48,012 nucleotides of DNA, taken from NCBI GenBank assembly GCA_018400135.1, contig JAGYNC010000001.1, positions 1-48,012 of the forward strand. The letters are read 5' to 3'. Numbering within the stretch: the stretch's first letter is position 1; each line of letters opens with the position of its first letter. The position numbers and the translations under genes are program-made. This document shows, piece after piece, positions 1,851 through 48,012 of the stretch. This DNA is from Victivallaceae bacterium (GTDB lineage: Bacteria; Verrucomicrobiota; Lentisphaeria; Victivallales; Victivallaceae). Under the pieces are notes generated by a model. That model saw only the letters and a list, made by a program, of their open reading frames with translations. It was not told the DNA's origin and made no database searches.

Positions 1851-3308
1851 ATGAACATTGATACCAGCAAAATAACTAAAAATTGGATGAAAGCCGCTGA
1901 AAAAAATTATGGGAAACCCTTTTTCCCTCAGAAAAGGGGAATGGATAAAATTAATGAAAGCTATTTAGCCGCATTAATCGCGGAAGTCTCGGGCATCAAA
2001 TACTATACGTCCGAAAATAGATTTTATTATTATCACGACGGAACTGGAGAATTTAAGCCCATGACTGACCATTCTGTTCTTGACCTCATTGGAAGAGTGA
2101 TTGTAAAATTGGCAGCCTCCATGGAACAATTTAAAAATATTCCACCTTATTTTTGTACGGCCAGAACACTGGATTCGGTTATAAAGCTAATCAAGGGAAA
2201 ATGTGAAGATTCGACATTTTTCAGTCGCGACCAGCTCCAGCTTCATATCCATTGCGCCAATAAGATGCTGGAATTTGACCGCAAGACGGATCGTTGGATT
2301 GCTAAACCCTTTTCCGCGGCTTATCGGAGCAGAAACAGAAATCCTCTGGCATATGCCCCGCGGGCAAAATGCCCTAAATTTATCGAAAATCTTTTGAAAC
2401 CGGCTATGAATGAAGATGACATCTCTCTTTTCCAGTGTTTTGTCGGACAATGTCTGCTGGGCTATAATTTTGGCCAGATTTTCCTTGTGCTTGTCGGCAT
2501 GGCAGGCGGTGGAAAGTCAACCTCAATCAATATCGTCGAGGGGCTTGTAGGGAAATGGAATTGTGTAGAGTTGCGCATCGAGCACATGGGTAGCAGGTTC
2601 GAAATTGGCCGTATTCACGGGAAAACCCTACTGACCGGCAAAGATATCCAACCCGAGCTATTAAGCGGTTCTTCAGTGGCAAAGCTCAAGTCGCTTACAG
2701 GCGGCGACACGCTCACTGCCGAATTCAAAGGCAGCAATTCCAGACTTGACGTGACTGGCACCGCCAATGTCGCCATCACCTGTAATGGGATTCCCCGATT
2801 CAAGCTGGATCAGGATGTCGATGCGTGGAAAAGACGAATCAGGGTTATTCGCTTTGAAAGACCGCCGACTAAAAATAAAATCGCGAATTTCGATAAGATA
2901 CTGCTTGAGGAAGAAGGGAGCGGTATTTTGAACTGGGCGCTGGAGGGAGCCACGCGCCTTTTGAAAAACGGCGGGCATATTCCCTTGACCATGGAGCAGG
3001 AACTCCGCGTCGATGGAATTATCGACTGTTCGCGCTCTTTCGACGTATTCGCCGACAAGTATATTCATCCAACCGCGAACGCGATAATTTCCACTGCCGA
3101 AGCGGTATCCTTTTACAGCAAGTTTTGCAAAGGAAAAGGATGGGTGCCGATGTCAGAAAGACTCGCCCAAAAAGCTTTTCATGCGTACATGCGAACCCAG
3201 TATGGGGCCTCGCTTCGTACCGATATCAAAGTAATTGACGAAGACGGCAAACTCAAAAACCGCAGAGGTTACGCCGGATATCAAATCACAAACAAAAAAG
3301 GAGTTTGA
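1851..3308 (+). CDS. Phage/plasmid primase-helicase, P4/D5 family (SF3 NTPase)
   Basis: Strong RBS AAGGAGG upstream of the ATG. Walker A is VGMAGGGKST, and the D5_N-like N-terminal region and C-terminal architecture are typical of P4-family primase C-terminal domain proteins. Confidence 0.8.
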   Translation: MNIDTSKITKNWMKAAEKNYGKPFFPQKRGMDKINESYLAALIAEVSGIKYYTSENRFYYYHDGTGEFKPMTDHSVLDLIGRVIVKLAASMEQFKNIPPYFCTARTLDSVIKLIKGKCEDSTFFSRDQLQLHIHCANKMLEFDRKTDRWIAKPFSAAYRSRNRNPLAYAPRAKCPKFIENLLKPAMNEDDISLFQCFVGQCLLGYNFGQIFLVLVGMAGGGKSTSINIVEGLVGKWNCVELRIEHMGSRFEIGRIHGKTLLTGKDIQPELLSGSSVAKLKSLTGGDTLTAEFKGSNSRLDVTGTANVAITCNGIPRFKLDQDVDAWKRRIRVIRFERPPTKNKIANFDKILLEEEGSGILNWALEGATRLLKNGGHIPLTMEQELRVDGIIDCSRSFDVFADKYIHPTANAIISTAEAVSFYSKFCKGKGWVPMSERLAQKAFHAYMRTQYGASLRTDIKVIDEDGKLKNRRGYAGYQITNKKGV

Positions 3309-3310
3309 AA

Positions 3311-4045
3311 ATGCATCCTACTATCGACGACATCGAAAAAACCGTATGTAACGTGTTGAAGCGTAAGACTTCAAGCTCAAGCAGGCGGGAGGAATCAATG
3401 CCTCAAGAACTACTCCCTGCTATTGAGGAACAGGCAAATCTGGCCTTCGCGAGTCAATCATTGCCATCAGGATTACTTTGTCCCGAAGAATCCAACGAGT
3501 ATAAATCCATAAAAAGCGTTCTCGAATATGCGGGGATGCCGACCGATTATTACTGTTTGGATTTTGTCATGAACAACTCTCCGATACGAATGGCTGATCC
3601 TGTCCAGCTGACCATGGCGCAAATAATCGCCTTCTGTCGCGATCTCCGAAGCAATGGCAATAGTTATCCCTTTTTCTTATCCAGCGAGACTTTGTTCTCC
3701 TTGGTAGAGCAAATAGACATGCTCCCCAATATGCTGGGGTTCCACTACCCTGATGCGTTGCGGCGGGAATGTCAATTTCTGGTACCTCGCCCAATCGATG
3801 AAAGAATGCCTATCTCCCAAGTCACTATACCTTTACAGCGCTTCCTGCAAAACCAGCAACACCTGCATTGCCCAAGGATGCTCGGAACGGGACTGTTACT
3901 GTCGCTGTTGCACAGGTTTTTGCGCGGCAACGAAAAGCTGACAAAGGCGGATTGGACGCCGCTCGTGAGAACGGTTGAATCTCCGAACCGTTATGAACCT
4001 CTGGCATTTATTCTCAACGAAACCGTAGATGCATTAACCCCTTAA
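3311..4045 (+). CDS. Hypothetical protein (island cargo)
   Basis: The ATG at 3311 follows RBS AAGGAG at 3297-3302; the track start at 3305 is a TTG. The gene is packed tightly against the primase stop. I recognise no motif. Confidence 0.6.
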   Translation: MHPTIDDIEKTVCNVLKRKTSSSSRREESMPQELLPAIEEQANLAFASQSLPSGLLCPEESNEYKSIKSVLEYAGMPTDYYCLDFVMNNSPIRMADPVQLTMAQIIAFCRDLRSNGNSYPFFLSSETLFSLVEQIDMLPNMLGFHYPDALRRECQFLVPRPIDERMPISQVTIPLQRFLQNQQHLHCPRMLGTGLLLSLLHRFLRGNEKLTKADWTPLVRTVESPNRYEPLAFILNETVDALTP

Positions 4046-4056
4046 AAAAAGGAAAC

Positions 4057-6030
4057 ATGAACATGATAATAACAAAAAGCGCTGGATCAGTGGGGCGGGG
4101 TGTTCTTAAACAACATTTGCAACAAGTTCCATTGAAAAAATATCCCGATTTACAAATATTTCGTGACAACAATCTAGAAAAGGATGCTATTCAATGTTCG
4201 GGAGTCGAGTTAATAATAAGAAACGACATGCACTCCGCTAATCTGCGGAGACGCATGCAAATCTCATTTGATTCTCAAGGCAGCCCGATCTTATGTAACG
4301 GCAGCATAAAAATTCTGCCAAACCAACCGAGCAGTTTTTTTACAGGGTTGTCATTCAACCCATTCTGGCCTCAACCAGAATGCGAACCGACCATTTATCA
4401 ATACGATCAACCAACAAAATACTCGATTTACAACCGGGATTCATCAATTGATGCCAAGTTCATAATGTTGAGAATATGCCAACCGGATGCCAACATAAGT
4501 TACTGCGTGGGTTCTGAGTTTTGGAGCGACAAAGACAAGGAATTCGGGCGTTATCTAGGAAAAGAATGGGATGTATCCGGAGAGTGGAATAGCCGTGAGG
4601 ATTCTATCGACGGCCCATGGAGCCGTGTTCCAATTCAGCAACCTGGTGCTAACATTTTTCGCGCCTTGGATTTTGCGGATACGCCATCTTATTACTTGGA
4701 ATATTACCCCAACGGCAGGAGCTACTCGATCCTGCCGTTACAATTCTATCAGCACCATTCGTATAAATCCCCGCTGAAGCTGTTTGTCCCTCCGCGTCCG
4801 CCATACACGCTAGTCAACTCGCAATATGTGGGCCGCTTTCCTAAGGCAAAAGTGTATCTTACGGATGATTTTTTTTTGGCACTTTTGAATGCACAATGCC
4901 CTGAATATGTTTTCCTGTGGAATCCCGGAGGCAACGCATGGGTTGAAAATCTAGACATAAGCAAATTACACGGGCGCAGGGTAACTTGCCCCGTCGTCCA
5001 AATCCATACCGAAAACCATAATATCGCCCAATCCTACCAATCCGCGCTCAATATGGCGAATAGATTGGAGGCTAGTGGAATTAAAACGGAGTTCTCTGAA
5101 ATCAAATTCCCGCGAAGCCATGATATTGGATTCCAACTACCCGTGGGGCCATGTCTCGAAAGTATTAGAACGAAATCTGGTGATGAAAAAATCATCTCAA
5201 AAAGTGAATTCATAAAACACGCCCAGGCACATGGGGCACATGTTCCAGACCTGTTGAGGCTTGATCGTTTTGGCTGTCTCGATGTTCAGAAACTCGAAAA
5301 AACAATTCCGCTTATTGAAAATTGTGTAGACTCGGGGGAGGTCACGATTATCGTCGAACATAGCAGGATCGATCAAAACATGGTATCAAGCCTGCTGTTT
5401 TCAATATTGATTGGCTCGGGCCGGAATACATTGCCTTTCTGGCGAAAAGTCTCGGATTCACAGCTCTCGTGCTTAGTGTTCCTTGATTTTGACCGTGCTA
5501 AACATTTCATGACCCATTTCCGACGTTATAGCTTGGCGGAAGTGGAGTGTCTGAAAAACTCGATTCACAGCACCAAGATTTTCATGTATCCAGAAAAAGA
5601 TGGATATTCTGAATTCAAAAAATTGGTGGGAATAAAATTACCCAAGGTCGTGATATTTGATGCCGAGTCCCTTAGGCATGGCAACGCGCAGCGAATTCAG
5701 TTACTGAGGAACGTTATGCATTATTGTGCCAGCGAAAATATCGCAGTGGTCATTGTCGTCAGAAGCCAACAGTTACTTCAACTCATACCTTGTCCCGATA
5801 GGCAAATCGAAGTGTGGAGTGACAATTCCGGAGATTCTGCACTTCTGGTCGAAGAAAAAGGAAATCATCAGGGATTTGATCCTTTCAAGATTTCCTTCAA
5901 TAATAAAGACCTCGTAATGGAACCTCTAGACGAAGATGTTCTGGCAAACCTCCCTGAACGCCAGCGTTGGTCAACATATAAGCCTGGTGTTGATCCGGAT
6001 GTTTTGGAAGAACTAAATTCCATGTCATAA
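4057..6030 (+). CDS. Hypothetical 657-aa protein (island cargo), possibly degenerate Toprim-like plus RecA/AAA_25-like regions
   Basis: Long ORF with RBS AAGGAAA, lying 11 nt after the previous stop. There are Walker-B-like hydrophobic-D strands (LVFLDFD, VVIFDAES, IAVVIVV) but no Walker A GKS/T. Confidence 0.65.
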   Translation: MNMIITKSAGSVGRGVLKQHLQQVPLKKYPDLQIFRDNNLEKDAIQCSGVELIIRNDMHSANLRRRMQISFDSQGSPILCNGSIKILPNQPSSFFTGLSFNPFWPQPECEPTIYQYDQPTKYSIYNRDSSIDAKFIMLRICQPDANISYCVGSEFWSDKDKEFGRYLGKEWDVSGEWNSREDSIDGPWSRVPIQQPGANIFRALDFADTPSYYLEYYPNGRSYSILPLQFYQHHSYKSPLKLFVPPRPPYTLVNSQYVGRFPKAKVYLTDDFFLALLNAQCPEYVFLWNPGGNAWVENLDISKLHGRRVTCPVVQIHTENHNIAQSYQSALNMANRLEASGIKTEFSEIKFPRSHDIGFQLPVGPCLESIRTKSGDEKIISKSEFIKHAQAHGAHVPDLLRLDRFGCLDVQKLEKTIPLIENCVDSGEVTIIVEHSRIDQNMVSSLLFSILIGSGRNTLPFWRKVSDSQLSCLVFLDFDRAKHFMTHFRRYSLAEVECLKNSIHSTKIFMYPEKDGYSEFKKLVGIKLPKVVIFDAESLRHGNAQRIQLLRNVMHYCASENIAVVIVVRSQQLLQLIPCPDRQIEVWSDNSGDSALLVEEKGNHQGFDPFKISFNNKDLVMEPLDEDVLANLPERQRWSTYKPGVDPDVLEELNSMS

Positions 6031-6275
6031 ACGTGCCGTAACTCATGCACGCAAAAACAACACAAAAGGAGGTACTCGGAATAAGAAAACAAAATCGGAA
6101 CCAGTAGCAGAACTCACAACAACGCGAGGCAAAAATGAAAGGAACAATCGGGTAAAATGGCTACCCTAGGCCAAAGAACCGAGAGTGGCGTTGAGTGCCG
6201 ATCTCGGTCCGACGACAGATATTCTTCTGTCAAATTTATATTAATAACTCCTTGTGATGGGGAGGCGGAGTTCAG

Positions 6276-6647
6276 GTGAAAACGCTGATGAAAGCACCTG
6301 TCCGTTATACAACTGTGAAACTTATAGGCCGGTTGCTTCAGCCGATTGCAGAAGCCGGGGCTATAAATATTCCAGAACTCAATGAAATTATGGCAAACCT
6401 GCGGCATCTCGCTCAAAAAGGCGAGTTGCTGCCGGATATGCCACCAAAACTTTTGACACAGCGTGAAGTTGCTGAAATGTTAAATATATCATTTCCGCAC
6501 TTTCGTGATTTGGAGCGCGAGGGACATTTTACCTTCCGCAGAAAAATGGTAGGAACTGCCGTTCGCTATTACAATATTGAAGTAGTGAAGTACATTTTAT
6601 CGCTTGACGAAGATGCCAATTTTTCGAGACAGGCTAAAATCGCATAA
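6276..6647 (+). CDS. Small HTH DNA-binding protein, excisionase/AlpA/MerR-like
   Basis: The segment LTQREVAEMLNISFPHFRDLEREGHF is typical of excisionase-family HTH domains. The gene converges on the integrase and is followed by an intrinsic terminator. It uses a GTG start; an alternative ATG lies at 6288. Confidence 0.55.
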   Translation: MKTLMKAPVRYTTVKLIGRLLQPIAEAGAINIPELNEIMANLRHLAQKGELLPDMPPKLLTQREVAEMLNISFPHFRDLEREGHFTFRRKMVGTAVRYYNIEVVKYILSLDEDANFSRQAKIA

Positions 6648-6660
6648 ACTTGTTTGATGG

Positions 6661-6696
6661 GCCTCGGGAAAGAAACACAACTTCCCGAGGCTTTTT
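6661..6696 (+). terminator. Rho-independent terminator (GCCTCGGGAA-loop-TTCCCGAGGC followed by TTTTT)
   Basis: A 10-bp GC-rich stem and a T-run directly follow the HTH gene stop, between the convergent genes. Confidence 0.65.
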
Positions 6697-6710
6697 CATA
6701 TCAGGAAAGT

Positions 6711-8084
6711 TTATCCACCCAAAATGGCGCGAAGCCGTTTCAATAGCCCAGTTGTAGGCTCGGGGTTCTGGGCCAGCAAAGCAAGCGCTTTTCTGATTCG
6801 CTCTTGAGGGCTGTCGCCCGTTGTTGTCATGGTATCGGTAATTGCCGCGATAGCCTGTTTTTGGGAGTCGCTTGAGACATGAGTGTAGAATTTATCGGCT
6901 ATTTTAGAGTCCGTGCCGAGAATCGATAACAGAGTAGATTTCGGGACGTTTGCCTCGGCACAAAACGAACAAAAAGAATGCCTGAGAGAGTGGAAGCCGT
7001 AGACCGTCATTTTTTTTGCTCGACCAGGTACTTTGACCGAAGGCTCCAGCCGAATCCAGCGGATTACGCGCATCACGTCTATGTTCACGAGGTTGTTCCC
7101 AACGTTTTTCCCGAGAGCGTTGGTTTTGTTATAACGGGCAGCGGTTTTCGGACACACATAGAGTTCCTTTCGCCAGCCTTCGGCTTCTCTCAGTGCCTCC
7201 AATAACGGAGGGGCGATGGGAATGGTTACATTCCTGCCGGTCTTGTACTGATGAACGTAAAGCTGGCCGAGGGCAAAATCAATATTTTGCCACTGCATTA
7301 AAACACAATCCTTCATCCGCTGACCTGTATACATACCAATTATATAAATTATTCTGATCTCATTTTTGTTGATCAATTTGCGTTCAGGATTTTTCAATTC
7401 TCTAAGCAAGGCCTGCTCCTGTTCCCTGGTGAAAGCCTGACGGCGAATCACCGATGATTGTTCTTCTCGAACATTGCGCAGCAATGATTTTTTACGGAAG
7501 GGGTTTTCGTGTTCGCAATAGTCTCCCAATACATCGAGGATTTTTCGTAAACGCTTTATCTTGCGGTTGTGGGTATCCACCGCCAGACTATTGGTTCTCA
7601 ACATGGACGCGTATTCTTCGGCAACCGCTGGAGTAATCTCGTTTATCGAGGAAATAATCGTGTGCAGAATTTCTCTGCTGGCAGTTGGAGAAGAGACAAA
7701 ATCCACGAACTCCTTGAAGGTCGATTGATAGGCCAACTGTTCGCTAACGGTATGTGGCATGGCGCGATCAGGACTTGCTGAATATTTTGCCCACGCATCT
7801 TCAATCGGCAGAATTTGACTGCGTTTGGCAAAACCTCTGGCAGCGCTGACATGCGCGGCGACGATTTCCACCTGATTTGCCTTTACAATCGGGATGAGTT
7901 CCTTGGCTTTTCGTTCCGCTTCGTTTTTGTTGTGAGTCTTCAGCGGAACATCTTTTCGCTGACCGTTGATCTGATAGCGAAAATAGTATGTGCCTCCTTT
8001 GACTTTTTGCCTGATTGATCCGAATTCGAGTTTCATGCAAATGACCTTGGTTTGTCTTGACATAAACGCATTCCTGTAAACCAC
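6711..8084 (-). CDS. int: Tyrosine-type site-specific recombinase/integrase
   Basis: Catalytic signature present: YTGQRMKD (R), HSLRHSF (HxxR) and FYTH (Y). It is adjacent to a tRNA 3' end. Alternative ATG starts lie at 8063 and 8036. Confidence 0.9.
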   Translation of the reverse strand: MVYRNAFMSRQTKVICMKLEFGSIRQKVKGGTYYFRYQINGQRKDVPLKTHNKNEAERKAKELIPIVKANQVEIVAAHVSAARGFAKRSQILPIEDAWAKYSASPDRAMPHTVSEQLAYQSTFKEFVDFVSSPTASREILHTIISSINEITPAVAEEYASMLRTNSLAVDTHNRKIKRLRKILDVLGDYCEHENPFRKKSLLRNVREEQSSVIRRQAFTREQEQALLRELKNPERKLINKNEIRIIYIIGMYTGQRMKDCVLMQWQNIDFALGQLYVHQYKTGRNVTIPIAPPLLEALREAEGWRKELYVCPKTAARYNKTNALGKNVGNNLVNIDVMRVIRWIRLEPSVKVPGRAKKMTVYGFHSLRHSFCSFCAEANVPKSTLLSILGTDSKIADKFYTHVSSDSQKQAIAAITDTMTTTGDSPQERIRKALALLAQNPEPTTGLLKRLRAILGG

Positions 8085-8174
8085 AGGTTACAGCACAATA
8101 TATCACGATCATGGACTATGCAAAGGCAAAGTGGGGAAAAGTGGGTCAAAAAAGAAGAAATTTGAGGCTAAAAA

Positions 8175-8264
8175 TGGCGGAGAGAGAGGGATTCGAACCC
8201 TCGGTGGAGTTACCCCCACACAGCATTTCCAATGCTGCGCCTTCGACCACTCGGCCATCTCTCC
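8175..8264 (-). tRNA. tRNA-Ser (anticodon GGA), 90 nt with a long variable arm and encoded CCA
   Basis: The reverse complement reads GGAGAGATGGCCGAGTGGTCGAAGGCGCAGCATTGGAAATGCTG...GAGGGTTCGAATCCCTCTCTCTCCGCCA. The acceptor stem is GGAGAGA/TCTCTCC, the anticodon loop is TTGGAAA, and the T-loop is GGTTCGAATCC. Confidence 0.93.
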
Positions 8265-8366
8265 GTATTGGGGAGTGTGTTGAAAATTCACGAGCGCATA
8301 ATATAGCGCATTGGCTTAAATAAACAAGAAAAGAAAGGGCTTGGTCGTGAGAAATCCGGGGGGCGT

Positions 8367-8470
8367 GTAATGCCTCACTCTTTCCTTTGGTTCGGGGTCA
8401 ATACTACACAGCCTCGTCGTTACTCCTCGGGTGTCGTAGCCTCGACCCCACCCAAAGAGTGAGGTATTAC
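8367..8470 (+). repeat. Family-A MITE-like hairpin repeat, copy A1 (intact)
   Basis: GTAATGCCTCACTCTTT...AAAGAGTGAGGTATTAC forms a 17-bp terminal inverted repeat. The 8-bp flanks are GGGGGCGT and AGGGGTGT (6/8 identical). Confidence 0.8.
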
Positions 8471-8543
8471 AGGGGTGTTAGTTTTTTTGAAATGAGGCGT
8501 TACTCATAAAACAACGGAACGTGCCGCTTGCGGCAACCGTAGC

Positions 8544-8599
8544 TTGCGCTCTCCGAGCGCAAATAGCAATGCCCCGCTTTATGCGTTCGGAGAACGCAT
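8544..8599. repeat. Two adjacent 8-bp-stem hairpins (TTGCGCTC-TCC-GAGCGCAA and ATGCGTTC-GGA-GAACGCAT)
   Basis: Read directly from the sequence. They lie downstream of the pgsA stop on the minus strand, and neither has a U-tract. Confidence 0.6.
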
Positions 8600-8624
8600 G
8601 CTACTTCGCAAGGCAAGGGTAATA

Positions 8625-9206
8625 TCAGTCGAGCAGGAGTCGGCGATATTTGATAAAATAACTCAATCCGGAAAGGACGGTAATAACCGCAGTTAATAAT
8701 AAGAAAGCTTGCCAGCCGGAGTTCAGCACGATTTTCCCGTCGTCGATTTGGTGTTGCAGCGAAAAGATTTGCACCCATGCCGCCCCTGCAATCAAAAGCA
8801 TAATCATCTGCAAGAAAGTTTTTGCTTTACCCCAGCGATCGGCGGCGATGACTTCGCCTTTCTGAGAAGCTACCATCCGCAGACCGGTTACCAGGAATTC
8901 GCGGGCAATGATGACTACTGCGATCCACGCTGGCATAAGTCGAAATTCTATCATCATCAGCATTGCGGCAACTACAAAAATTTTGTCAGCCAAAGGATCC
9001 AATAATGCGCCGATATCGGTTTCCTGATGCCATTTGCGGGCAAGATAACCGTCGAGCAGATCGGTAAACCCGGCAACAATCGCCAGAATATAGGCAACGA
9101 TCCGCATGGTTAACACAGAACCTTCGGGGATGCCGTGGGAATTGGATGCCAATATCAGGAAGATAAAAATTATGACGATTCTGGCAGTCGTCAGTATATT
9201 AGGCAT
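8625..9206 (-). CDS. pgsA: CDP-diacylglycerol--glycerol-3-phosphate 3-phosphatidyltransferase
   Basis: CDP-alcohol phosphatidyltransferase motif DLLDGYLARKW...GALLDPLADK. The start at MPNILTTARI (9206) gives the usual ~193 aa; the longest ORF extends to 9329. Confidence 0.85.
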   Translation of the reverse strand: MPNILTTARIVIIFIFLILASNSHGIPEGSVLTMRIVAYILAIVAGFTDLLDGYLARKWHQETDIGALLDPLADKIFVVAAMLMMIEFRLMPAWIAVVIIAREFLVTGLRMVASQKGEVIAADRWGKAKTFLQMIMLLIAGAAWVQIFSLQHQIDDGKIVLNSGWQAFLLLTAVITVLSGLSYFIKYRRLLLD

Positions 9207-9386
9207 ATTAATTTTCACTAATGACACTCCGTAGGGGTTATTGCAGTTTTGGACACTAAAACAGCTTGTCTGAAATATACTCTGTTGATCCGGGTTTTCA
9301 ACTTGAGCTAAAAGAGAAAAATTCGACATGCATAAGTATATTTTAGGTTTCTATTGAATTTAAGACTCGCTTTTAATGACCGGCAA

Positions 9387-12641: not shown

Positions 12642-14378
12642 TCACCAGTTCTTTCTCGGAGTATAGTGGGTGTGCAGCAATTCATGTGCTTTTTTGCTGC
12701 CCGGCTTATCCAGATATTCATCATACAATTTGATAACATCAGGATTCTGATGCGATTTGCGCAACGACAATCCGCTGTCCGCTTTATAGATGGCTTCTTT
12801 GCGTTTTTCGAGAATTTTGGTATCCCCATGAATATAAGGCTGACCGCCGCCGTTCAGACAACCGCCGGGACAGGCCATAATCTCGATAGCATGATACTGC
12901 GCCTTCCCGGACTTGATGCGGTCAAGCAATTTACGGGCATTGCCAAGACCGGAAGCTATTGCCACTTTTACATCCGTACCAGCAACTTTGACAGTGGTAT
13001 CTCTGATACCGGACAGGCCGCGCACTTCCTCAAAGTCAAACTCTTTCAGGTCCTCTCCAGAAAGCCAGTCAGCAGCAGTACGCAGCGCGGCTTCAAGAAC
13101 GCCGCCGGAAGCCCCAAAAATAACACCGGCGCCAGTGGATTCACCCAGCGGACTATCGAATTGCTGTTCTTCCAGCTTGTTGATATGGATACCAGCTTCC
13201 TTGAACATGTCGGCCAATTCCCGCGTGGAAATCACAATATCCACATCCGGCACACCGTCGCGGGTAAATTCACTACGTGATGCTTCATACTTTTTAGCCA
13301 GACACGGCATAACAGAAACAACCACAATGTCTTCCGGCTTCAAACCCATTTTTTCGGCATAGTATGATTTGGCCACAGCACCGAACATTTGTTGCGGCGA
13401 CTTAGCGCTTGACGGCATATAGATCAGCTCCGGGAACTGGTGTTCAAGAAACTTCACCCAGCCGGGGCAGCACGAAGTCAGAATCGGCAGATTCTCATTT
13501 TTCTTCAAGCGATCAATAAATTCGGTGGTTTCTTCCATAATAGTCAAATCGGCGGCAAAGTCGGTATCGAATACTTTGTCGAACCCAAGCAATTTTAACC
13601 CGGCAACCAGTTTGCCGGTAGCAATCTCTCCCGGTGCCATACCAAACTCTTCGCCAATAGCCACACGTACCGCAGGTGCCGTCTGAACAACGACATGCTT
13701 TTTCTCGTTATTCAGCGCTCGCCAGACGTTGTACTTATAGTTCTGTTCGGTTAAAGCGCCCACCGGACAAGCGGCCACACACTGACCGCAGAAAACACAT
13801 TTAGTTTCGCTCAACGGGCGAAGACCGGGAGTCCCTACTACCGCCTCAAATCCTCTGCCGACACCGGAGAGAATTCCGACCGTCTGAACATTATTGCAGG
13901 CGTTTTCGCAGCGACGACACATGATACATTTGTCTAAATCCCGGACAATGGCGTTACAGGCGAGATCAATGTCATATTTGGATTGTCTGCCTTCATAAAG
14001 CAAATGGTGTAAATCCATTTCGCTGGCTAACCGCTGCAATTCGCAGTTGCCGTTCTTTTCGCAGGTAAGACAATCTTTTGGATGATCCGAAAGAATCAGA
14101 TCCAACATTGTTCGCCTGGCGTTAATTGCCCGGAGAGTACTGGTTTTTACTACCATTCCTTCATTTACCGGAGTACAACATGCTGGTGCCAGATTGTTAC
14201 GTCCCTCGACTTCAACAACGCATATCCGGCATGACCCCATCCGGTTCTCAATTGTGAAGCAATCCAATTCAAGATGGCACAACGTCGGAATACGAATGCC
14301 GATTTTATCAGCTGCCTGGAGTATGGTTGACCCCTTTTTCACCCGAACCGGCAGATTATTAATGCTAAGATTAATCAT
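12642..14378 (-). CDS. hydA: [FeFe]-hydrogenase catalytic subunit (group A3, HydA-type)
   Basis: H-cluster motifs TSCCPGW, MPCLAKKYE and EIMACPGGCLNGGGQP, plus an N-terminal 2Fe-2S and multiple 4Fe-4S Cys clusters. Confidence 0.92.
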   Translation of the reverse strand: MINLSINNLPVRVKKGSTILQAADKIGIRIPTLCHLELDCFTIENRMGSCRICVVEVEGRNNLAPACCTPVNEGMVVKTSTLRAINARRTMLDLILSDHPKDCLTCEKNGNCELQRLASEMDLHHLLYEGRQSKYDIDLACNAIVRDLDKCIMCRRCENACNNVQTVGILSGVGRGFEAVVGTPGLRPLSETKCVFCGQCVAACPVGALTEQNYKYNVWRALNNEKKHVVVQTAPAVRVAIGEEFGMAPGEIATGKLVAGLKLLGFDKVFDTDFAADLTIMEETTEFIDRLKKNENLPILTSCCPGWVKFLEHQFPELIYMPSSAKSPQQMFGAVAKSYYAEKMGLKPEDIVVVSVMPCLAKKYEASRSEFTRDGVPDVDIVISTRELADMFKEAGIHINKLEEQQFDSPLGESTGAGVIFGASGGVLEAALRTAADWLSGEDLKEFDFEEVRGLSGIRDTTVKVAGTDVKVAIASGLGNARKLLDRIKSGKAQYHAIEIMACPGGCLNGGGQPYIHGDTKILEKRKEAIYKADSGLSLRKSHQNPDVIKLYDEYLDKPGSKKAHELLHTHYTPRKNW

Positions 14379-16253: not shown

Positions 16254-16790
16254 CTATGCGCATTCGTTAATGATATCCGGCACCATCTTCGCAGTCACTT
16301 TGCCGTACACCTTGTCATTGACCATTACCACCGGAGCCAGGCTGCATGCCCCCACACATCTCAATGAGTTGAGTGAAAACTTCCGATCTGCGGAAGTTTC
16401 CCCCACTTCAAGATTCAGATAACGCTTGAACTCATCCAATACTGCTCCGGCTCCCTTGACAAAACACGCGGTGCCGGTACAGACATGAATTTTGTACTTA
16501 CCAACCGGTTTATCGGTAAAATAGGAATAAAAACTTATAACACCATAAACTTCCGAAAGATGAAGTTTGAGTTTGTCGGCCACAAACAATTGAACACACA
16601 GCGGCAGATAACCGAATATGTCTTGCGCCTTATGCAAACTTTGTATAAGTAATCCGCGATTTTTCTCGCGATTGTTACCAATGTCCAAAGATTGAATGTA
16701 CTCTTCGAGTTTTTTGCGCTTATCAGGAAACTCTTCAATCAGATTCAGTTCCTGCGGCTTCTGTTCGTCACAATGACATGACATGACCAC
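16254..16790 (-). CDS. hydC: NuoE-like 2Fe-2S thioredoxin-fold subunit (HydC)
   Basis: NuoE-type pattern CTGTACFVKG...CVGACSLAPV, and it is the first gene of the hydCBA operon. Confidence 0.88.
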   Translation of the reverse strand: MVMSCHCDEQKPQELNLIEEFPDKRKKLEEYIQSLDIGNNREKNRGLLIQSLHKAQDIFGYLPLCVQLFVADKLKLHLSEVYGVISFYSYFTDKPVGKYKIHVCTGTACFVKGAGAVLDEFKRYLNLEVGETSADRKFSLNSLRCVGACSLAPVVMVNDKVYGKVTAKMVPDIINECA

Positions 16791-16912: not shown

Positions 16913-17009
16913 GTAATCCTTTGGGTGGGGGCGAAGCTACGACACTCGAGGAGAAACGACGAGGCTGTGTAGTATTGACCCCGAACCAAAGAAAAGAGTG
17001 AGGCTTTAC
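16913..17009 (-). repeat. Family-A repeat, copy A3 (inverted orientation; 8-nt deletion in one terminus)
   Basis: GTAATCCTTTGGGTGGGGGCGAAGCTACGACACTCGAGGAGAAACGACGAGGCTGTGTAGTATTGACCCCGAACCAAAGAAAAGAGTGAGGCTTTAC is the reverse complement of the A consensus. Confidence 0.8.
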
Positions 17010-17094
17010 TGAGCGATTACCAAATCTCTGATAACTTAAGAAAAAAGTTGATTTATTTTAATAGTTATGTTATAATTATGGAATATTCGAAAAG

Positions 17095-26991: not shown

Positions 26992-27474
26992 CGGCAGCCT
27001 CTTTTCTATAGCAATTTATATCCACACAAAACTTGAAGTTCAACAACAAAAAGCATGTCAAAAACCAAGATATGTAACTCTGTCTGCTAACGTTTTCATA
27101 ATCAGCTTTATTGTATTACTTACTTAATTATTGCAATTATTTTTTTAACCGAAAAAGATTCAACAACAAAAAGCAATTTAACTTTAATGACTTATATCTG
27201 AGTCGAATCATGTAAAATATAGAGATTGATGTGAGTAAAATCAAGCAAATCTGCAAAAAACACGAAACATCGGGAAAGTGGCGTTAACCGTCAAATAATG
27301 AAACTGTATTATATTTCTATTCTATAGTAAATAATATCTAAAATAGACAAAAGTTGCTTGAATTATTGGTGAGTTACAACCATTTTAATGGTCTGCTTAA
27401 GGCCGGGTGTTTAACGAATCCGTTGAAACGACATGCCCCCGGCGTTACTGAAATTAAACACGGAGACACTTGTT

Positions 27475-28272
27475 ATGGAAGTAATCATCAGGGAAAATGC
27501 GGAGGCGGCGGTGGCATTAACCGCAAGCCTGATAACTGAGGCGATTGTGGCCAATCCATCATTGACGCTCGGACTGGCGACCGGACGGACGATGGAAGCG
27601 GTTTATGCCAAACTGGCAGAGATCGACCGCCATGACGGGTTGGATTTTTCACTGGCCAAAACTTACAATCTGGACGAATACATCGGGTTGCCGCCGGAAG
27701 ATCCCCATTCCTACCGATACTACATGAATGAACATCTGTTCAGCAAGATAAATATCGACTTGCGAAACACCCACCTGCCGCTCGGCATGGCTGAAGATAT
27801 TGATGAGGAATGCCTCGCCTACGAAGACAGTATTCTTAATGATGGTGGCATTGACCTGCAATTGCTCGGCATTGGGCGTTCCGGACATATCGGCTTTAAC
27901 GAGCCTCTCTCAGCGCTTCGCTCCAGAACCCGAGCTAAGGCGCTGACCCCGACAACTATTGCCCAGAATTCCCCATTATTTAAAGTTCCTGAGGATATGC
28001 CGAGCCGAGCCATTACCATGGGCGTTGGTACTATTCTGGAAGCCGGCCGCATCATCATGTTGGTCACCGGCAAAGAAAAAGCCGCTATTCTGGCCAAAGC
28101 AGTGGAGGGGCCGATTACCTCAATGATTTCCGCCAGCGCCATCCAGTTGCACCCCAAGTGCACGGTAATCGTTGATGAAACGGCTGCCGAACAGCTACAG
28201 GAAAAAGAGTATTACCGTTGGATTTTCGATAATGAACCGGAGTGGGAACCATATCGGAACAATAATGCCTAA
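27475..28272 (+). CDS. nagB: Glucosamine-6-phosphate deaminase
   Basis: Motifs GLATGRT and LLGIGRSGHIGFNEP. The start is at MEVIIREN. Confidence 0.9.
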   Translation: MEVIIRENAEAAVALTASLITEAIVANPSLTLGLATGRTMEAVYAKLAEIDRHDGLDFSLAKTYNLDEYIGLPPEDPHSYRYYMNEHLFSKINIDLRNTHLPLGMAEDIDEECLAYEDSILNDGGIDLQLLGIGRSGHIGFNEPLSALRSRTRAKALTPTTIAQNSPLFKVPEDMPSRAITMGVGTILEAGRIIMLVTGKEKAAILAKAVEGPITSMISASAIQLHPKCTVIVDETAAEQLQEKEYYRWIFDNEPEWEPYRNNNA

Positions 28273-28289
28273 TCTCAAGAAGTAGGGTG

Positions 28290-28446
28290 TTTTCGCCGAA
28301 AGCCCCGCCCTGTGACGCAGTTAGTACGTCAAACAAGTAGGACGTTTTCGGCGAAAATTCCCCCGTACCGCAGTCATCGCAGCAATGTCATGTTTAACGC
28401 GTTGATTGCAGATAGAGTTAATAAGGGCCGGTTTCGGCGAAACCGG
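28290..28446. promoter_or_regulatory. Three copies of the palindromic motif TTTCG(C/G)CGAAA
   Basis: TTTTCGCCGAAA at 28290-28301, TTTTCGGCGAAAA at 28345-28357 and CCGGTTTCGGCGAAACCGG at 28428-28446. The first two are each preceded by AAGTAGG. Confidence 0.45.
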
Positions 28447-28691
28447 TCTACCTAGCGAACCCGAATAGAGAATACACTCTATAAACAAACACGGAATCAT
28501 TTATCCACGAATTTCACTAATTTTTTTACAAATGTGGCGATTGAACCGGTTTTATGTTTGCACTTTATTTTTTCCAACATAGTTTAATTAGTAGGATTTG
28601 GTTACGTCGACCAAATCAGAGAGATTAGTAGCATAACGAATTAACTAATGTTGTATTAACCGGCGCCAAGCGCGCCCAAGGGAGACAAAAA

Positions 28692-34837: not shown

Positions 34838-36145
34838 TCAAGCCTTGTACACGTTCGGCCCCGGTTGCATCGCGTTACGGGTATCAATAATCAGTTTTGC
34901 TTCTCGTGCTAAACGTTGATAATCAAGGCCATCGTGCGCAGTGGAAATGAGCACGGCATCATAATCCGGCGCGTTTTCCAGTGGCACGCTCTTAATCCCC
35001 TCGAACTGCGGGTGTTCACGCATGTGGGGAGCTTCAGGACAATAGGGGTCGCAATAGTCAACTTTGGCCCCACGCTCTTCCAGCAGCTGCCACAGCTTGA
35101 AGCTTGGGCTTTCACGCGGATCATCAACATTTTTCTTGTAAGCCAGCCCCACCAACAATATTCTGGCGTTTTTCATCGCGATGCCGTTGATGCTCATGAT
35201 TTCAATCATTCGGCTTATGACATGATACGGCATGTAGGTATTAATTTCGCCGGCAAGTTCAATAAAACGGGTCGGGGTATCGTATTCCCGTGATTTCCAG
35301 GTGAGATAAAAAGGATCAATCGGAATACAGTGGCCACCGAGTCCGGGTCCCGGATAAAACGGCATGAAACCGAACGGCTTGGTGGCGGCGGCATCAATCA
35401 CCTCCCAAACATCAATCCCCATTTTTTCAAAAACTACTTTGAGTTCATTGACCAATGCGATGTTAACCGCCCGAAAAATATTTTCCAACAATTTAGTCGC
35501 TTCTGCCGTTGAGGCAGATGACACCGGAACCGTCCGGCAGATGACGGCATCATACAGTGCCCGAGCACCCTGGAGACTGCGTTCATCTATGCCGCCGACC
35601 ACTTTGGGGATGGTTGAAGTTGAAAAATTCTTGTTGTTCGGATCTTCGCGTTCCGGCGAGTAAGCAACAAGAAAATCCTTACCGGCCTTAAGTCCGCTTC
35701 CTTTTTCCAGAATGGGGATCAAGACTTCTGTGGTTGTTCCCGGATAAGTGGTTGACTCCAGACAGTAGAGCTGACCGCGACGCACATGGGATGCCAGAGT
35801 TTCGGCGGTAGAAACAATATAACTCATGTCCGGTTCGCGATGGCGAGTCAGCGGTGTCGGCACACAGATGAGAATGGCATCACATGACGCGATTTGGCTG
35901 AAATCATCTGTTGCGTCAAACCGGTTGGACGCATTGAGTTGAGCTATTTTATCCGATAAAATATGACGAATGTAAGATTTTGATGCAAGCAATGCATCAA
36001 CTTTTTTTTGATCAATATCAAGTCCCAGTACCTTGAATCCGGCGCGACAGAACTCCAATACCAACGGCAACCCAACGTAACCAAGACCAACAACTCCAAT
36101 CCGGGCATCACGTTTCGTCATTTTATCAAGAAAGTTTTCAGGCAT
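34838..36145 (-). CDS. Nucleotide-sugar dehydrogenase (UDP-glucose/GDP-mannose dehydrogenase family)
   Basis: N-terminal IGVVGLGYVGLPL Rossmann motif and the catalytic GLGGHCIPIDP motif. Confidence 0.88.
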   Translation of the reverse strand: MPENFLDKMTKRDARIGVVGLGYVGLPLVLEFCRAGFKVLGLDIDQKKVDALLASKSYIRHILSDKIAQLNASNRFDATDDFSQIASCDAILICVPTPLTRHREPDMSYIVSTAETLASHVRRGQLYCLESTTYPGTTTEVLIPILEKGSGLKAGKDFLVAYSPEREDPNNKNFSTSTIPKVVGGIDERSLQGARALYDAVICRTVPVSSASTAEATKLLENIFRAVNIALVNELKVVFEKMGIDVWEVIDAAATKPFGFMPFYPGPGLGGHCIPIDPFYLTWKSREYDTPTRFIELAGEINTYMPYHVISRMIEIMSINGIAMKNARILLVGLAYKKNVDDPRESPSFKLWQLLEERGAKVDYCDPYCPEAPHMREHPQFEGIKSVPLENAPDYDAVLISTAHDGLDYQRLAREAKLIIDTRNAMQPGPNVYKA

Positions 36146-36193
36146 ATTGCTCCTTTGCGTGACGCTTGCGCCAGGCTAATTGTAAGATTATTT

Positions 36194-36297
36194 GTAACCC
36201 CTCACTCTTTCCTTTGGATCGGGGTCAATACTACACAGCCTCATCGTTCCTCCTCGGGTGTCGTAGCCTCGACCCCACCCAAAGAGTGAGGCATTAC
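36194..36297 (+). repeat. Family-A MITE-like repeat, copy A4 (intact)
   Basis: GTAACCCCTCACTCTTT...AAAGAGTGAGGCATTAC, flanked by GATTATTT and AATTATTT (7/8 identical). Confidence 0.85.
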
Positions 36298-36398
36298 AAT
36301 TATTTTGTGCTAATTTAACGATTGACGTACAATACTTAGAATTTATCACTTTATTGTGGTAAAATCAATCGGAGTATTGGAGTAGTCTGCAAAATCTG

Positions 36399-36500
36399 GC
36401 AACACCTCACTCTTTTTCTACTCGTTGCCCGCTTTCATCGCCGTTCTCCTGAACCGATATGATAGTCCCCCCGACAAATCAGGATTGAGTGAGGCGCTAC
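36399..36500 (+). repeat. Family-B MITE-like repeat, copy B2 (intact)
   Basis: GCAACACCTCACTCTTTTTCTAC...GATTGAGTGAGGCGCTAC, flanked by AAAATCTG and GAAATCTT (6/8 identical). Confidence 0.8.
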
Positions 36501-36611
36501 GAAATCTTAATTTTATCCGTCTTATTTTGTAAATTTGATTTGAAGCAACGGCAATTTCGGGATAAACTATCTGAAGTATAAATCAAAACAAAAAATTACA
36601 AAGGAGATATC

Positions 36612-37589
36612 ATGGCTGTCTGTTATCGCGACCTGGGATTGGTCAATACTCGTGAAATGTTCGCCAAGGCAATGGAAGGCAAATACGCTATCCCCGCCTA
36701 CAACTTCAACAACATGGAACAACTGCAAGCGATTATTTCGGCTTGTGTTGAAACTGAATCACCGGTAATTTTGCAAATATCCAAAGGTGCTCGTGAGTAT
36801 GCCAATCAAACGCTTTTGCGTTATATGGCACAGGGCGCGGTGGAATACGCCAAAGAACTCAGTGGCGGCAATGCTATTCCGATCGCTGTGCATTTGGATC
36901 ATGGTCCTGATTTTGATGTCTGCAAGAGTTGCATTGATTTCGGATTTTCATCAGTAATGATTGACGGTTCTCATCTGTCTTTCGATAAGAATATTGAAGA
37001 GACCCGCAAGGTGGTTGAGTACGCGCATCAGCATGATGTAACAGTCGAAGGCGAACTGGGAGTACTGGCCGGAAAGGAAGATGATGTTGAAGCTGAAGAA
37101 CACATCTACACCCAGCCGGATGAAGTAGAAGAGTTTGTTAAACGCACCGGTGTTGACAGCCTGGCGATTGCCATCGGCACGTCTCATGGAGCTTTCAAAT
37201 TTAAACCCGGAACAGATCCAAAAATCCGACTTGACATACTCGCCGAGATTGAAAGACGTATTCCCGGCTTCACCATTGTTCTACATGGCTCGTCTTCAGT
37301 GCCGGCAGAGCTGGTTGCCATTATCAATCAATATGGCGGCAAGTTGAAAGACGCTATCGGTATTGGCGAAGACCAACTACGTAAAGCAGCTAAATCAGCA
37401 GTGTGCAAAATCAATATTGATTCCGATGGACGCCTGGCCATGACGGCCGCAATTCGCAGGGTGCTTGCAGAGAAACCGGCGGAGTTTGATCCGCGAAAAT
37501 ATCTCGGTCCGGCCCGCGAGGCGCTGAAAGAACTTTATATGCATAAGAATGTCAAAGTCCTCGGTTCTGCCGGCCATGCCTTCGATTGA
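36612..37589 (+). CDS. fba: Class II fructose-1,6-bisphosphate aldolase
   Basis: VHLDHG, GTSHGAFKF and LHGSSSVP motifs, with RBS AAAGGAG. Confidence 0.92.
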   Translation: MAVCYRDLGLVNTREMFAKAMEGKYAIPAYNFNNMEQLQAIISACVETESPVILQISKGAREYANQTLLRYMAQGAVEYAKELSGGNAIPIAVHLDHGPDFDVCKSCIDFGFSSVMIDGSHLSFDKNIEETRKVVEYAHQHDVTVEGELGVLAGKEDDVEAEEHIYTQPDEVEEFVKRTGVDSLAIAIGTSHGAFKFKPGTDPKIRLDILAEIERRIPGFTIVLHGSSSVPAELVAIINQYGGKLKDAIGIGEDQLRKAAKSAVCKINIDSDGRLAMTAAIRRVLAEKPAEFDPRKYLGPAREALKELYMHKNVKVLGSAGHAFD

Positions 37590-44257: not shown

Positions 44258-44800
44258 ATGGAACGACGCCCCATCACCACCAGCGAATTCAAAACCGATA
44301 TTTTCGACACTTTTCTCAAGGATTGGATGTTGTTGACCGCCGGTGATTTTCAGTCCGGCCGTTTCAATCAGATGACCATTGCTTGGGGATTTATGGGCGG
44401 CATGTGGTTCAAGCCCGCAGTTATGGTGGTTGTAAGACCGCAACGGCATACTTTGCAATTCATGGATAAATACGACGATTTCACTATTTGCGCTTTCCCG
44501 GAAAGCAAAAAAGAAGTGCTCTCATTTTGCGGTTCGCATTCCGGCAAAGAGCTGAACAAAACACAAGAGTGCGGCTTGACACCGATTCCCGGCGAGAAAA
44601 GTAACGCGCCCGGTTATGAAGAGGCCACGTTGATTATTGAATGTCGCAAGCTTTACCGCGATCAATACAAAGCCAAAAACTTTTTGGAAAAATCTATCCT
44701 TGACAGTTGCTATCCGGAACGGGATCTTCACTACATGTTTGTTGGAGAAATTATGCATATTTCCGGCATTGACAAGTACCGCAGGAAAAGCTTTTCCTAA
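44258..44800 (+). CDS. Flavin reductase-like (FMN-binding split-barrel) protein
   Basis: RBS AAGGAGG. The N-terminal pattern LLTAGD...NQMTIAWG is typical of flavin reductase-like domain proteins. Confidence 0.65.
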   Translation: MERRPITTSEFKTDIFDTFLKDWMLLTAGDFQSGRFNQMTIAWGFMGGMWFKPAVMVVVRPQRHTLQFMDKYDDFTICAFPESKKEVLSFCGSHSGKELNKTQECGLTPIPGEKSNAPGYEEATLIIECRKLYRDQYKAKNFLEKSILDSCYPERDLHYMFVGEIMHISGIDKYRRKSFS

Positions 44801-44825: not shown

Positions 44826-44897
44826 GTAATCGCTCACTCTTTGGGCGTCGAGGCTGCGACACCCGAGGAGGAACGATTGGTGCTCTGTAAAGTCAAT
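44826..44897 (-). repeat. Family-A repeat, copy A5 (decayed; inverted orientation)
   Basis: GTAATCGCTCACTCTTTGGGCGTCGAGGCTGCGACACCCGAGGAGGAACGA matches the reverse-complement A consensus with a 3-nt deletion. The remainder is degenerate. Confidence 0.65.
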
Positions 44898-45681
44898 CTT
44901 GTGATTGCGGCTTCGGAGTGAAAGATAAAAAAGGCGGAATAAAATCCGCTGCTTTCAAAGGAACATTGAGTTTATAAAGAATAATTTTGTATTTACTTGC
45001 TGTTTGCCCGCTTTGTACAGTAATTTCATCTGGAATCATCACATTATCGTAAAGCGCGTATCTTTCAATGGTGGCGTGATAGCGTTCGCTTCCTTTGTCG
45101 TTAAGAAGAGTATTAATACTTTTGGTCAAAAAGTTATTTTTCCCCACATAGATGTTGAACGGCTGTTGTCCTTCTACCGCAGAAATGCACTCAAGGCGAT
45201 AGTAAGGTTTGTTGTCACGCAAAATGCATTGTGAAAGCCGGATTTCAGGAAAAAGCTGCTGGTAGGAGCGATCCGGCCGGCTCATACCAAAAAAGACGCG
45301 CATCCGCTCAAGAGTTATACCCTCAATTTTGGTTGTTCGTTGCTTACGATAATCAACCACCCAGGCTTCACGGCCATCGAAGAAAATAGCGGTAACCGGT
45401 TTATTTTCTTCAATTGTCGTCATTCTCAGAAATTCGGGGCGTTTAAAAATGGTTTCTACAATATAGTGTCGAGCCTGGCTGCCGCTTTCCACTAACATCT
45501 GACGTTGTACATAAGATTGAGCTTGGCGAAACACGCCATTGGGGTCCATCGTCTTTCGCATTTTTTGTTCAAGTGAGTCAAGACTGATATCGGCCGGTTG
45601 ATATTTCGGTTCAAAGGTTGAACAACCTGTAAGCATAAAGCCAAGCATTACCAGCCCGATAATTATACGCGATAACATCAT
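44893..45681 (-). CDS. Hypothetical lipoprotein (LolA-like candidate)
   Basis: Signal peptide with lipobox MLTGCS, starting at MMLSRII. Confidence 0.6.
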   Translation of the reverse strand: MMLSRIIIGLVMLGFMLTGCSTFEPKYQPADISLDSLEQKMRKTMDPNGVFRQAQSYVQRQMLVESGSQARHYIVETIFKRPEFLRMTTIEENKPVTAIFFDGREAWVVDYRKQRTTKIEGITLERMRVFFGMSRPDRSYQQLFPEIRLSQCILRDNKPYYRLECISAVEGQQPFNIYVGKNNFLTKSINTLLNDKGSERYHATIERYALYDNVMIPDEITVQSGQTASKYKIILYKLNVPLKAADFIPPFLSFTPKPQSQD

Positions 45682-45798
45682 GAATTGAGCCCTCCTGAGT
45701 TGCGGTTTTATCTGTGCCGCAAGTAGCAACCGTTGTTATTGTCTGGATAAAAATAGTCCACGATAACCTTTAATACAAATTACAGAAGACGATGTTTA

Positions 45799-47866: not shown

Positions 47867-47947
47867 GTAAGGCCTCACTCTTTCCTTTGGTTCGGGGTCA
47901 ATACTACACAGCCTCGTCGTTCCTCCTCGGGTGTCGTAGCCTCGACC
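47867..47947 (+). repeat. Family-A repeat, copy A6 (3' terminus missing)
   Basis: GTAAGGCCTCACTCTTTCCTTTGGTTCGGGGTCAATACTACACAGCCTCGTCGTTCCTCCTCGGGTGTCGTAGCCTCGACC, after which it is unrelated sequence. Confidence 0.75.
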
Positions 47948-48012
47948 TGCTTATGTCCCGTAAATTAAGCTGGTAATTTTATAATATTCTGCTATCTTCC
48001 TTTCATTCACTC

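Follow-up and report, generated by a model that had tools for sequence, protein, structure and literature searches.

Short palindromic repeats with IS66-type ends and a conserved inner hairpin in a 48-kb Victivallaceae contig

Repeats and genes of the window

The window, by which we mean the whole 48,012-nt stretch analyzed, carries genes for a group A6 FeFe hydrogenase with NuoE/NuoF-like partners, pgsA, tsaC, a class II aldolase, an H-X9-DG prepilin, ZnuABC, and UvrB. Aldolases of Lentisphaerae/Victivallaceae MAGs share 84–88% identity with that of the window, and together with the gene content this indicates an uncultured, Victivallales-like member of the Lentisphaerae as host. The window, which appears to comprise an entire contig, starts inside an insertion sequence (IS) and ends 65 nt after a truncated repeat (47947–48012), which suggests that assembly broke at repeats. 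Between these limits lie two families of short repeats, A and B, read below as putative MITEs, together with stray pieces of their termini:

1–1182, + strand: right-hand part of an IS66-family IS; the contig start lies inside it
8367–8470, + strand: family A, intact, 104 nt, between tRNA-Ser (8175–8264, −) and pgsA (8625–9329, −)
8490–8503, + strand: isolated piece resembling a terminus, AAATGAGGCGTTAC; it matches the family-B terminus at 12/14 and lies 20 nt from copy 8367
11763 to ∼11865, + strand: family B, 3′ part decayed; over the 5′ terminus and first 64 nt it shares 89% identity with copy 36399
12482 to ∼12585, + strand: family A; 5′ terminus GCAATGCC... and core intact, 3′ terminus degenerate
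16913–17009, − strand: family A, inverted, with an 8-nt internal deletion beside one terminus
17010–17020, reverse strand: partial terminus of 11 nt, GTAATCGCTCA, abutting copy 16913
36194–36297, + strand: family A, intact, 104 nt, the copy named in the preliminary description
36399–36500, + strand: family B, intact, 102 nt; termini GCAACACCTCACTC...GAGTGAGGCGCTAC, also given as GYAACRCCTCACTC...GAGTGAGGCGCTAC
44826 to ∼44901, − strand: family-A remnant, inverted; half of the core and a single terminus, which reads GTAATCGCTCACTC on the + strand, are left, the other core half being decayed
47867–47947, + strand: family A, 3′ truncated at 47947; 5′ terminus and core present

The six family-A copies of the preliminary description, positions included, were recovered by a repeat finder, a MAFFT alignment, and a covariance model of the core, which found exactly these six in the window and nothing else. 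They are 74–94% identical over 106 nt (repeat finder and MAFFT alignment), with the intact copies at 8367 and 36194 at 94% identity over that length. The 19-nt terminus GTAATGCCTCACTCTTTCC has eight matches at ≤3 mismatches in the window, versus 0.01 expected from shuffles. The elements are 102–115 nt long and noncoding, each frame being interrupted or no longer than 34 aa, and the recurring “fake peptides” noticed earlier are merely open frames running across the repeat. The terminal inverted repeats start with GTAA and end with TTAC, and GTAA stands at both ends of copies 8367 and 36194. They are 17 nt long and, in the intact copies, complementary at 15–16 of the 17 positions. RNA folds of intact copies bore out the long imperfect hairpin (−40 to −53 kcal/mol, z-scores −5.4 to −6.8).

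The copies are scattered through the window in either orientation, between genes that may be co-directional, divergent, or convergent. Copy 12482 is placed between the FeFe hydrogenase gene (12642–14378, −) and tsaC, copy 16913 lies upstream of a nuoE/hoxE-like gene (16254–16790, −), copy 36194 lies in the divergent region between an NDP-sugar dehydrogenase gene (34838–36145, −) and the fructose-bisphosphate aldolase gene (36612–37589, +), and copy 44826 lies between the convergent ORFs 44258–44800 (+) and 44893–45729 (−). Most are intergenic, and two touch doubtful ORF ends. Copy 12482 overlaps the tsaC ORF only in an N-terminal extension that is itself dubious; copy 44826 lies against the stop of ORF 44893–45729 or overlaps it. 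A promoter/terminator consensus scan around the copies gave background levels.

Families A and B together make eight elements in 48 kb. Their termini are of the same type, and their interiors match no better than shuffled sequence. There are thus two families on one set of termini, and the family-A interior occurs elsewhere, on contigs described below, with different IS66-like termini. MITE decay typically leaves truncated and decayed copies, isolated termini, and partial termini next to an element, all of which are present here. The fragment at 8490–8503 is possibly the remnant of a lost element; together with the partial terminus at 17010–17020 and a weaker 31-nt terminus-like match at 44550–44580, inside ORF 44258–44800, it may stand for lost or nested insertions.

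Copy 8367 also has a palindromic neighbor of another kind, a 66-nt hairpin at 8539–8604 with GTAGC...GCTAC ends (14/16 complementary), between that copy and the pgsA stop. Its sequence is unrelated to families A and B; a terminator is one possibility, some other small palindromic element a second. To the left of copy 8367 lies an island-like block (1851–8264), in which a DUF5906 (primase-like) ORF (1851–3308) and unknown ORFs (3305–6030) are followed by a tyrosine integrase (6711–8084) that directly adjoins tRNA-Ser(GGA) at 8175–8264. The arrangement resembles that of an element integrated beside a tRNA gene.

Flank duplications and IS66-type ends

The sequences that flank the elements over 8 bp are similar at several copies, both in the window and on contigs L004–L006, which carry related elements:

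8359–8366 GGGGGCGT and 8471–8478 AGGGGTGT: flanks of copy 8367, 6/8
36186–36193 GATTATTT and 36298–36305 AATTATTT: flanks of copy 36194, 7/8
36391–36398 AAAATCTG and 36501–36508 GAAATCTT: flanks of family-B copy 36399, 6/8
L006 element: flanks 7/8
L005 element: flanks 4/8
L004c element: flanks 8/8 with a 1-nt offset

Under a null drawn from the window, the probability of a match of at least 6/8 in strict register is 0.0055, and that of an 8/8 match with offsets ≤1 nt is 0.0002. Four of the seven elements match at ≥6/8 in strict register, a significant similarity for which chance is no explanation. The near-identical flanks first quoted for 36194 and 8367 were correct, and further copies with flank similarity, which were looked for, are present on other contigs (L004, L005, L006, and L007). 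No window copy has a perfect 8-bp duplication. Since the duplications in the window are all imperfect, no insertion there looks recent; imperfect flanks, truncated copies, and solo fragments fit old insertions.

In the literature, GTAA...TTAC termini together with ∼8-bp flank duplications mark the IS66 family (PMC11946415, PMC3281130, PMC12898284). The inverted repeats of its members start with GTAAGCG or GTAAC and are accompanied by 8-bp direct repeats (PMC11946415, table in PMC3281130, PMC12898284, PMC12888890); ISDge4 has a GTAACTGCTCAGCA end and an 8-bp repeat (PMC12898284). A member of this family lies in the contig itself. Window positions 17–1090 encode the last 357 aa of a DDE_Tnp_IS66 transposase (PF03050, E = 1.4e-30), and the right inverted repeat of the IS, GGCGGACTGACCGATTAC, occupies 1165–1182, where the element ends. 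Read inward (GTAATCGGTCAGTC), this repeat agrees with the MITE terminus in 10 of 14 positions. The IS is a candidate source of a trans-acting transposase and probably not the exact cognate.

Complete relatives show what such an IS looks like. Homologs of the window transposase at 65–75% identity are ∼540 aa long. A full-length IS on L008 (2171 bp) consists of a small DUF6788 ORF and a 540-aa transposase, and a full-length relative on L009 likewise has both ORFs. The two are bounded by inverted repeats GTAATCGGTCAGTCCG..., of which the same right repeat ends the window IS, and the L008 copy has a perfect 8-bp duplication (ACGGAACC, 8/8). The closest ends belong to a more distant relative: a full-length IS66-type IS on L012, a contig from another metagenome sample than that of the source organism, encodes a transposase with 52% identity to that of the window, and its perfect 18-bp inverted repeats, GTAATGCCTCAGTCTTTA, agree with the MITE terminus GTAATGCCTCACTCTTT in 16 of 17 positions. 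On L013 the IS is bounded by GTAATGCGTCAGTCGGTT inverted repeats, and its flanks are alike at 7/8. All MITE termini and IS repeats examined have the pattern GTA(A)nnnnnTCA(G/C)T in common. As a side observation, a Nextera adapter (GTCTCGTGGGCTCGGAGATGTGTATAAGAGACAG) is embedded at ∼100–135 of L012, near the left contig end, and that end is chimeric, which may be the reason for the lack of matching 8-bp flanks at the L012 IS.

Because GTAA termini and 8-bp flanks are both hallmarks of the IS66 family, we read the ends of the repeats as IS66-type. Families A and B are very probably non-autonomous type II MITEs mobilized in trans by an IS66-family DDE transposase. The original “MITE-like” reading is thereby supported and narrowed to an IS66-family-type MITE, on the strength of the termini, the flanks, the IS66 fragment in the contig, and the near match at L012. 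A type II MITE shares only its termini with the parent IS. Under the proposed mechanism, an IS66-family transposase would bind the ∼17-bp terminal inverted repeats (GTAAnGCCTCACTCTTT), cut at their GTAA/TTAC ends, and insert the element through a staggered 8-bp cut, the repair of which would produce the flanking 8-bp direct repeat. A cognate IS66-type IS with GTAATGCCTCA(C/G)TCTTT-type ends is presumably encoded elsewhere in the source genome, and the copies may be mobile now or may have been so recently. The long hairpin would be mainly a by-product of the palindromic build; alternatively, by analogy with other bacterial MITEs, it could act on host transcripts as a stabilizer, terminator, or RNase target.

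The same ends and flanks weigh on two other accounts of ∼100-nt intergenic palindromes. REP/REPIN elements are two inverted palindromes that form a hairpin and are spread on ssDNA by RAYT, a Y1/HUH transposase related to IS200/IS605. They resemble our repeats in size, in the long hairpin, in intergenic location, and in high density, and a separate REP-like cluster does occur in the window. At 28282–28451, just downstream of the gene at 27433–28272, three units of the form GTAGnnnG(G/T)TTTCG(C/G)CGAAA, with a GTAG head and a short palindrome, lie two in direct and one in inverted orientation (3 matches versus 0.05 expected, none elsewhere in the window), and they may be a separate REP/BIME-type family. 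REPINs, however, join two inverted short REPs without target duplication, whereas the repeats described here end in plain GTAA inverted repeats, not self-palindromic and with no GTAG head, that match an IS66-type repeat at 16/17 and are flanked by 8-bp duplications. Mobilization of the RAYT/IS200 type is not known to make flank duplications. A Y1/HUH transposase is also absent among the window ORFs scanned, and we consider a REPIN origin very unlikely.

Alternatively, the repeats, being imperfect palindromes of ∼100 nt, could be hairpins for site-specific recombination that resemble integron attC or dif and serve the tyrosine recombinase at 6711–8084. That enzyme is weakly similar to integron integrases and lies 280 nt from copy 8367. 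Against this, the copies are scattered in both orientations among housekeeping genes instead of forming a one-way cassette array, their termini are GTAA/TTAC rather than the RYYYAAC...GTTRRRY of attC sites, and the flank duplications fit transposition; the recombinase, beside tRNA-Ser, resembles a normal island integrase. Such a role is hardly credible.

Related elements on other contigs and the inner core

Direct nucleotide searches returned nothing related. Blastn of the element against 5,426 complete E. coli genomes (E ≤ 0.01) gave no match, nor did BLAST against plasmids and phages, and patterns of the family-A core had 0 matches in GTDB representative genomes, 0 matches in IMG/VR viral contigs, and no true match in JGI metagenome contigs; the lone JGI pattern match, L001, is a chance match in unrelated 65%-GC DNA. 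A search for proteins exactly identical to the window's aldolase gave no match, and the contigs with the closest aldolase homologs, L002 and L003, are not syntenic with the window and are without the repeat. Further copies were found by searching the translated frames of the repeat against a protein database and then reading the contigs of the matches. This search returned four spurious ORFs, and their contigs (L004–L007) carry related elements, three within 9 kb on L004 and one each on L005, L006, and L007. Only four further ORFs of this sort (P0249–P0252) came out of an exhaustive profile search, in which another match, P0248, was a false positive; hence the element either is rare or seldom gets annotated as an ORF. 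The elements on L004 (JGI 3300083231 contig, 9 kb) are of three different subtypes, and all lie in divergent promoter regions:

∼636–735, − strand: L004, related element
∼5145–5250, + strand: L004, related element
∼5361–5458, + strand: L004, related element, with compensatory changes in the outer and inner stems

The 56-nt core of the copies on L004–L007 is identical to that of window family A at 52 of 56 positions. Their ends differ. The metagenomic variants start with GTAA, GTAC, or GTAT; the termini on L005 and L006 are GTA(C/T)ATATTCAGTGAAC, and that of L004c is GTAAGCCCTCAGTCGC. The element at ∼263–370 of L007 is chimeric around the same core, with the window-type end GTAATGCCTCAGTTGCC on one side and the L005-type end GTTTACTGAATATGTAC on the other, which suggests recombination or an exchange of termini between subfamilies. 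No parent IS was found for termini of the GTA(C/T)ATATTCAGTGAAC type, L011 and L013 carrying other ends, and the covariance model detected no family-A core inside the full-length IS66-type ISs L008, L009, L012, and L013. Between subfamilies, then, the core is 93% identical on termini that are 41% identical (7/17). MITEs usually show the opposite, and an interior better conserved than its termini calls for some additional explanation.

The core has several properties that a structured RNA would have. It is 95.8% paired across eight distinct sequences, a small sample of related sequences, and pairs 8–49, 12–45, and 13–44 are changed on both sides, as can also happen in palindromic DNA and in transposase-bound repeats, which co-vary too. 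The G·U pairs 7–50 and 10–47 are invariant and always lie on the G-rich strand, which folds better than its complement by 3–13 kcal/mol in all five variants tested. The purine-rich apical loop, GAGGAGGAACGACGA, hardly varies, and a purine bulge of 2 nt on the 3′ side of the core is conserved as well. The outer stem keeps its pairing while its sequence differs between subfamilies. The G-rich strand is the sense strand at copies 8367 and 12482, which lie between co-directional genes (2/2 informative copies).

These observations could mean that the repeats are immobile, either structured noncoding RNA genes or cis-regulatory RNA hairpins, with the outer stem as a closing helix. However, Rfam yielded tRNA-Ser alone at the gathering score and no known RNA family over the repeat even at E ≤ 10, the check proposed at the outset; a known ribozyme or riboswitch was rejected on the same ground. 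Significant 8-bp flank duplications and GTAA termini like IS inverted repeats are unexpected for an RNA gene. Family B, with the same termini on an unrelated interior, also speaks against it, as do copies scattered in both orientations, many of them truncated or decayed. Covariation is equally expected for transposase-bound termini and palindromic DNA, and orientation is informative at two positions only. The preliminary description had looked to syntenic copies with compensatory changes as the mark of an RNA: the compensatory changes are there, across subfamilies, but the copies are dispersed, not syntenic. Overall, we regard immobile RNA genes as unlikely.

The core may nonetheless have a function within the MITE reading. 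We tentatively propose, as a minority possibility, that the 56-nt core is a selected functional module, a structured RNA or ssDNA hairpin on the G-rich strand, that would travel as a passenger on IS66-type termini and be refitted with different termini in different hosts. If so, the MITE would be more than junk DNA: it would be the dispersal vehicle of a regulatory or protein-binding hairpin. Selection on the core would then make it a functional hairpin spread by a MITE and swapped between transposase-specific termini, with a bearing on how MITEs become domesticated as regulatory elements.

Known relatives and implications

It is useful to compare the repeats with the systems they most resemble. 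The IS66-family ISs in the two-ORF form (L008, L009, L012, and L013) share with them GTAA ends, the box GTAAnnnnTCAGTC, the 8-bp target duplication, and the host clade, since they too lie on Victivallales/Lentisphaerae-like metagenomic contigs. Unlike these ISs, the MITEs are ∼104 nt long without an ORF, and their interiors are dissimilar to IS interiors. Among type II bacterial MITEs, MITEPsy1 is 100 nt long, has ISPsy2-like termini, and is mobilized in vivo (PMC3189936, PMC10969869); the QMITEs and Chunjie elements belong to the same class (reviewed in PMC10969869). The repeats share with this class their small size, inverted termini common to an IS, direct repeats that decay with age, predicted stable stem-loop transcripts, mostly intergenic location, and the coexistence of truncated and full-length copies (PMC3189936, PMC10969869). 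They differ from MITEPsy1 in their parent, IS66 here versus IS5-like there, and in an interior better conserved than the termini. A literature search found no described IS66-derived MITE, which is weak evidence of novelty.

ERIC/IRU and Correia elements are similar in other respects. They have conserved cores and affect mRNA processing. They are imperfect palindromes of ∼100–150 nt, present in high copy number, often co-transcribed with their neighbors, and conserved across species beyond the expectation for junk DNA (see PMC10969869). Their termini, duplication length, and host phylum differ from those described here. Identity with ERIC was rejected: there is no sequence similarity, and blastn found no match in the 5,426 E. 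coli genomes, which carry ERIC. In sum of these likenesses, the element is of an ordinary, well-known kind in a poorly studied phylum, with an inner hairpin that is unusually well conserved.

The recognition of these elements may be relevant in several ways. First, they explain spurious small ORFs and contig breaks in Lentisphaerae/Victivallales MAGs. Second, they explain dense hairpins beside housekeeping genes, here the hydrogenase operon, pgsA, tsaC, and the aldolase gene. Finally, they offer a concrete pairing of MITE and IS for the little-studied IS66 family, with GTAA ends, an 8-bp duplication, and an accessory DUF6788 ORF. In L008, L009, L010, L012, and L013, that ORF encodes ∼100 aa and accompanies the DDE transposase, as against the classical tnpA/tnpB/tnpC layout.
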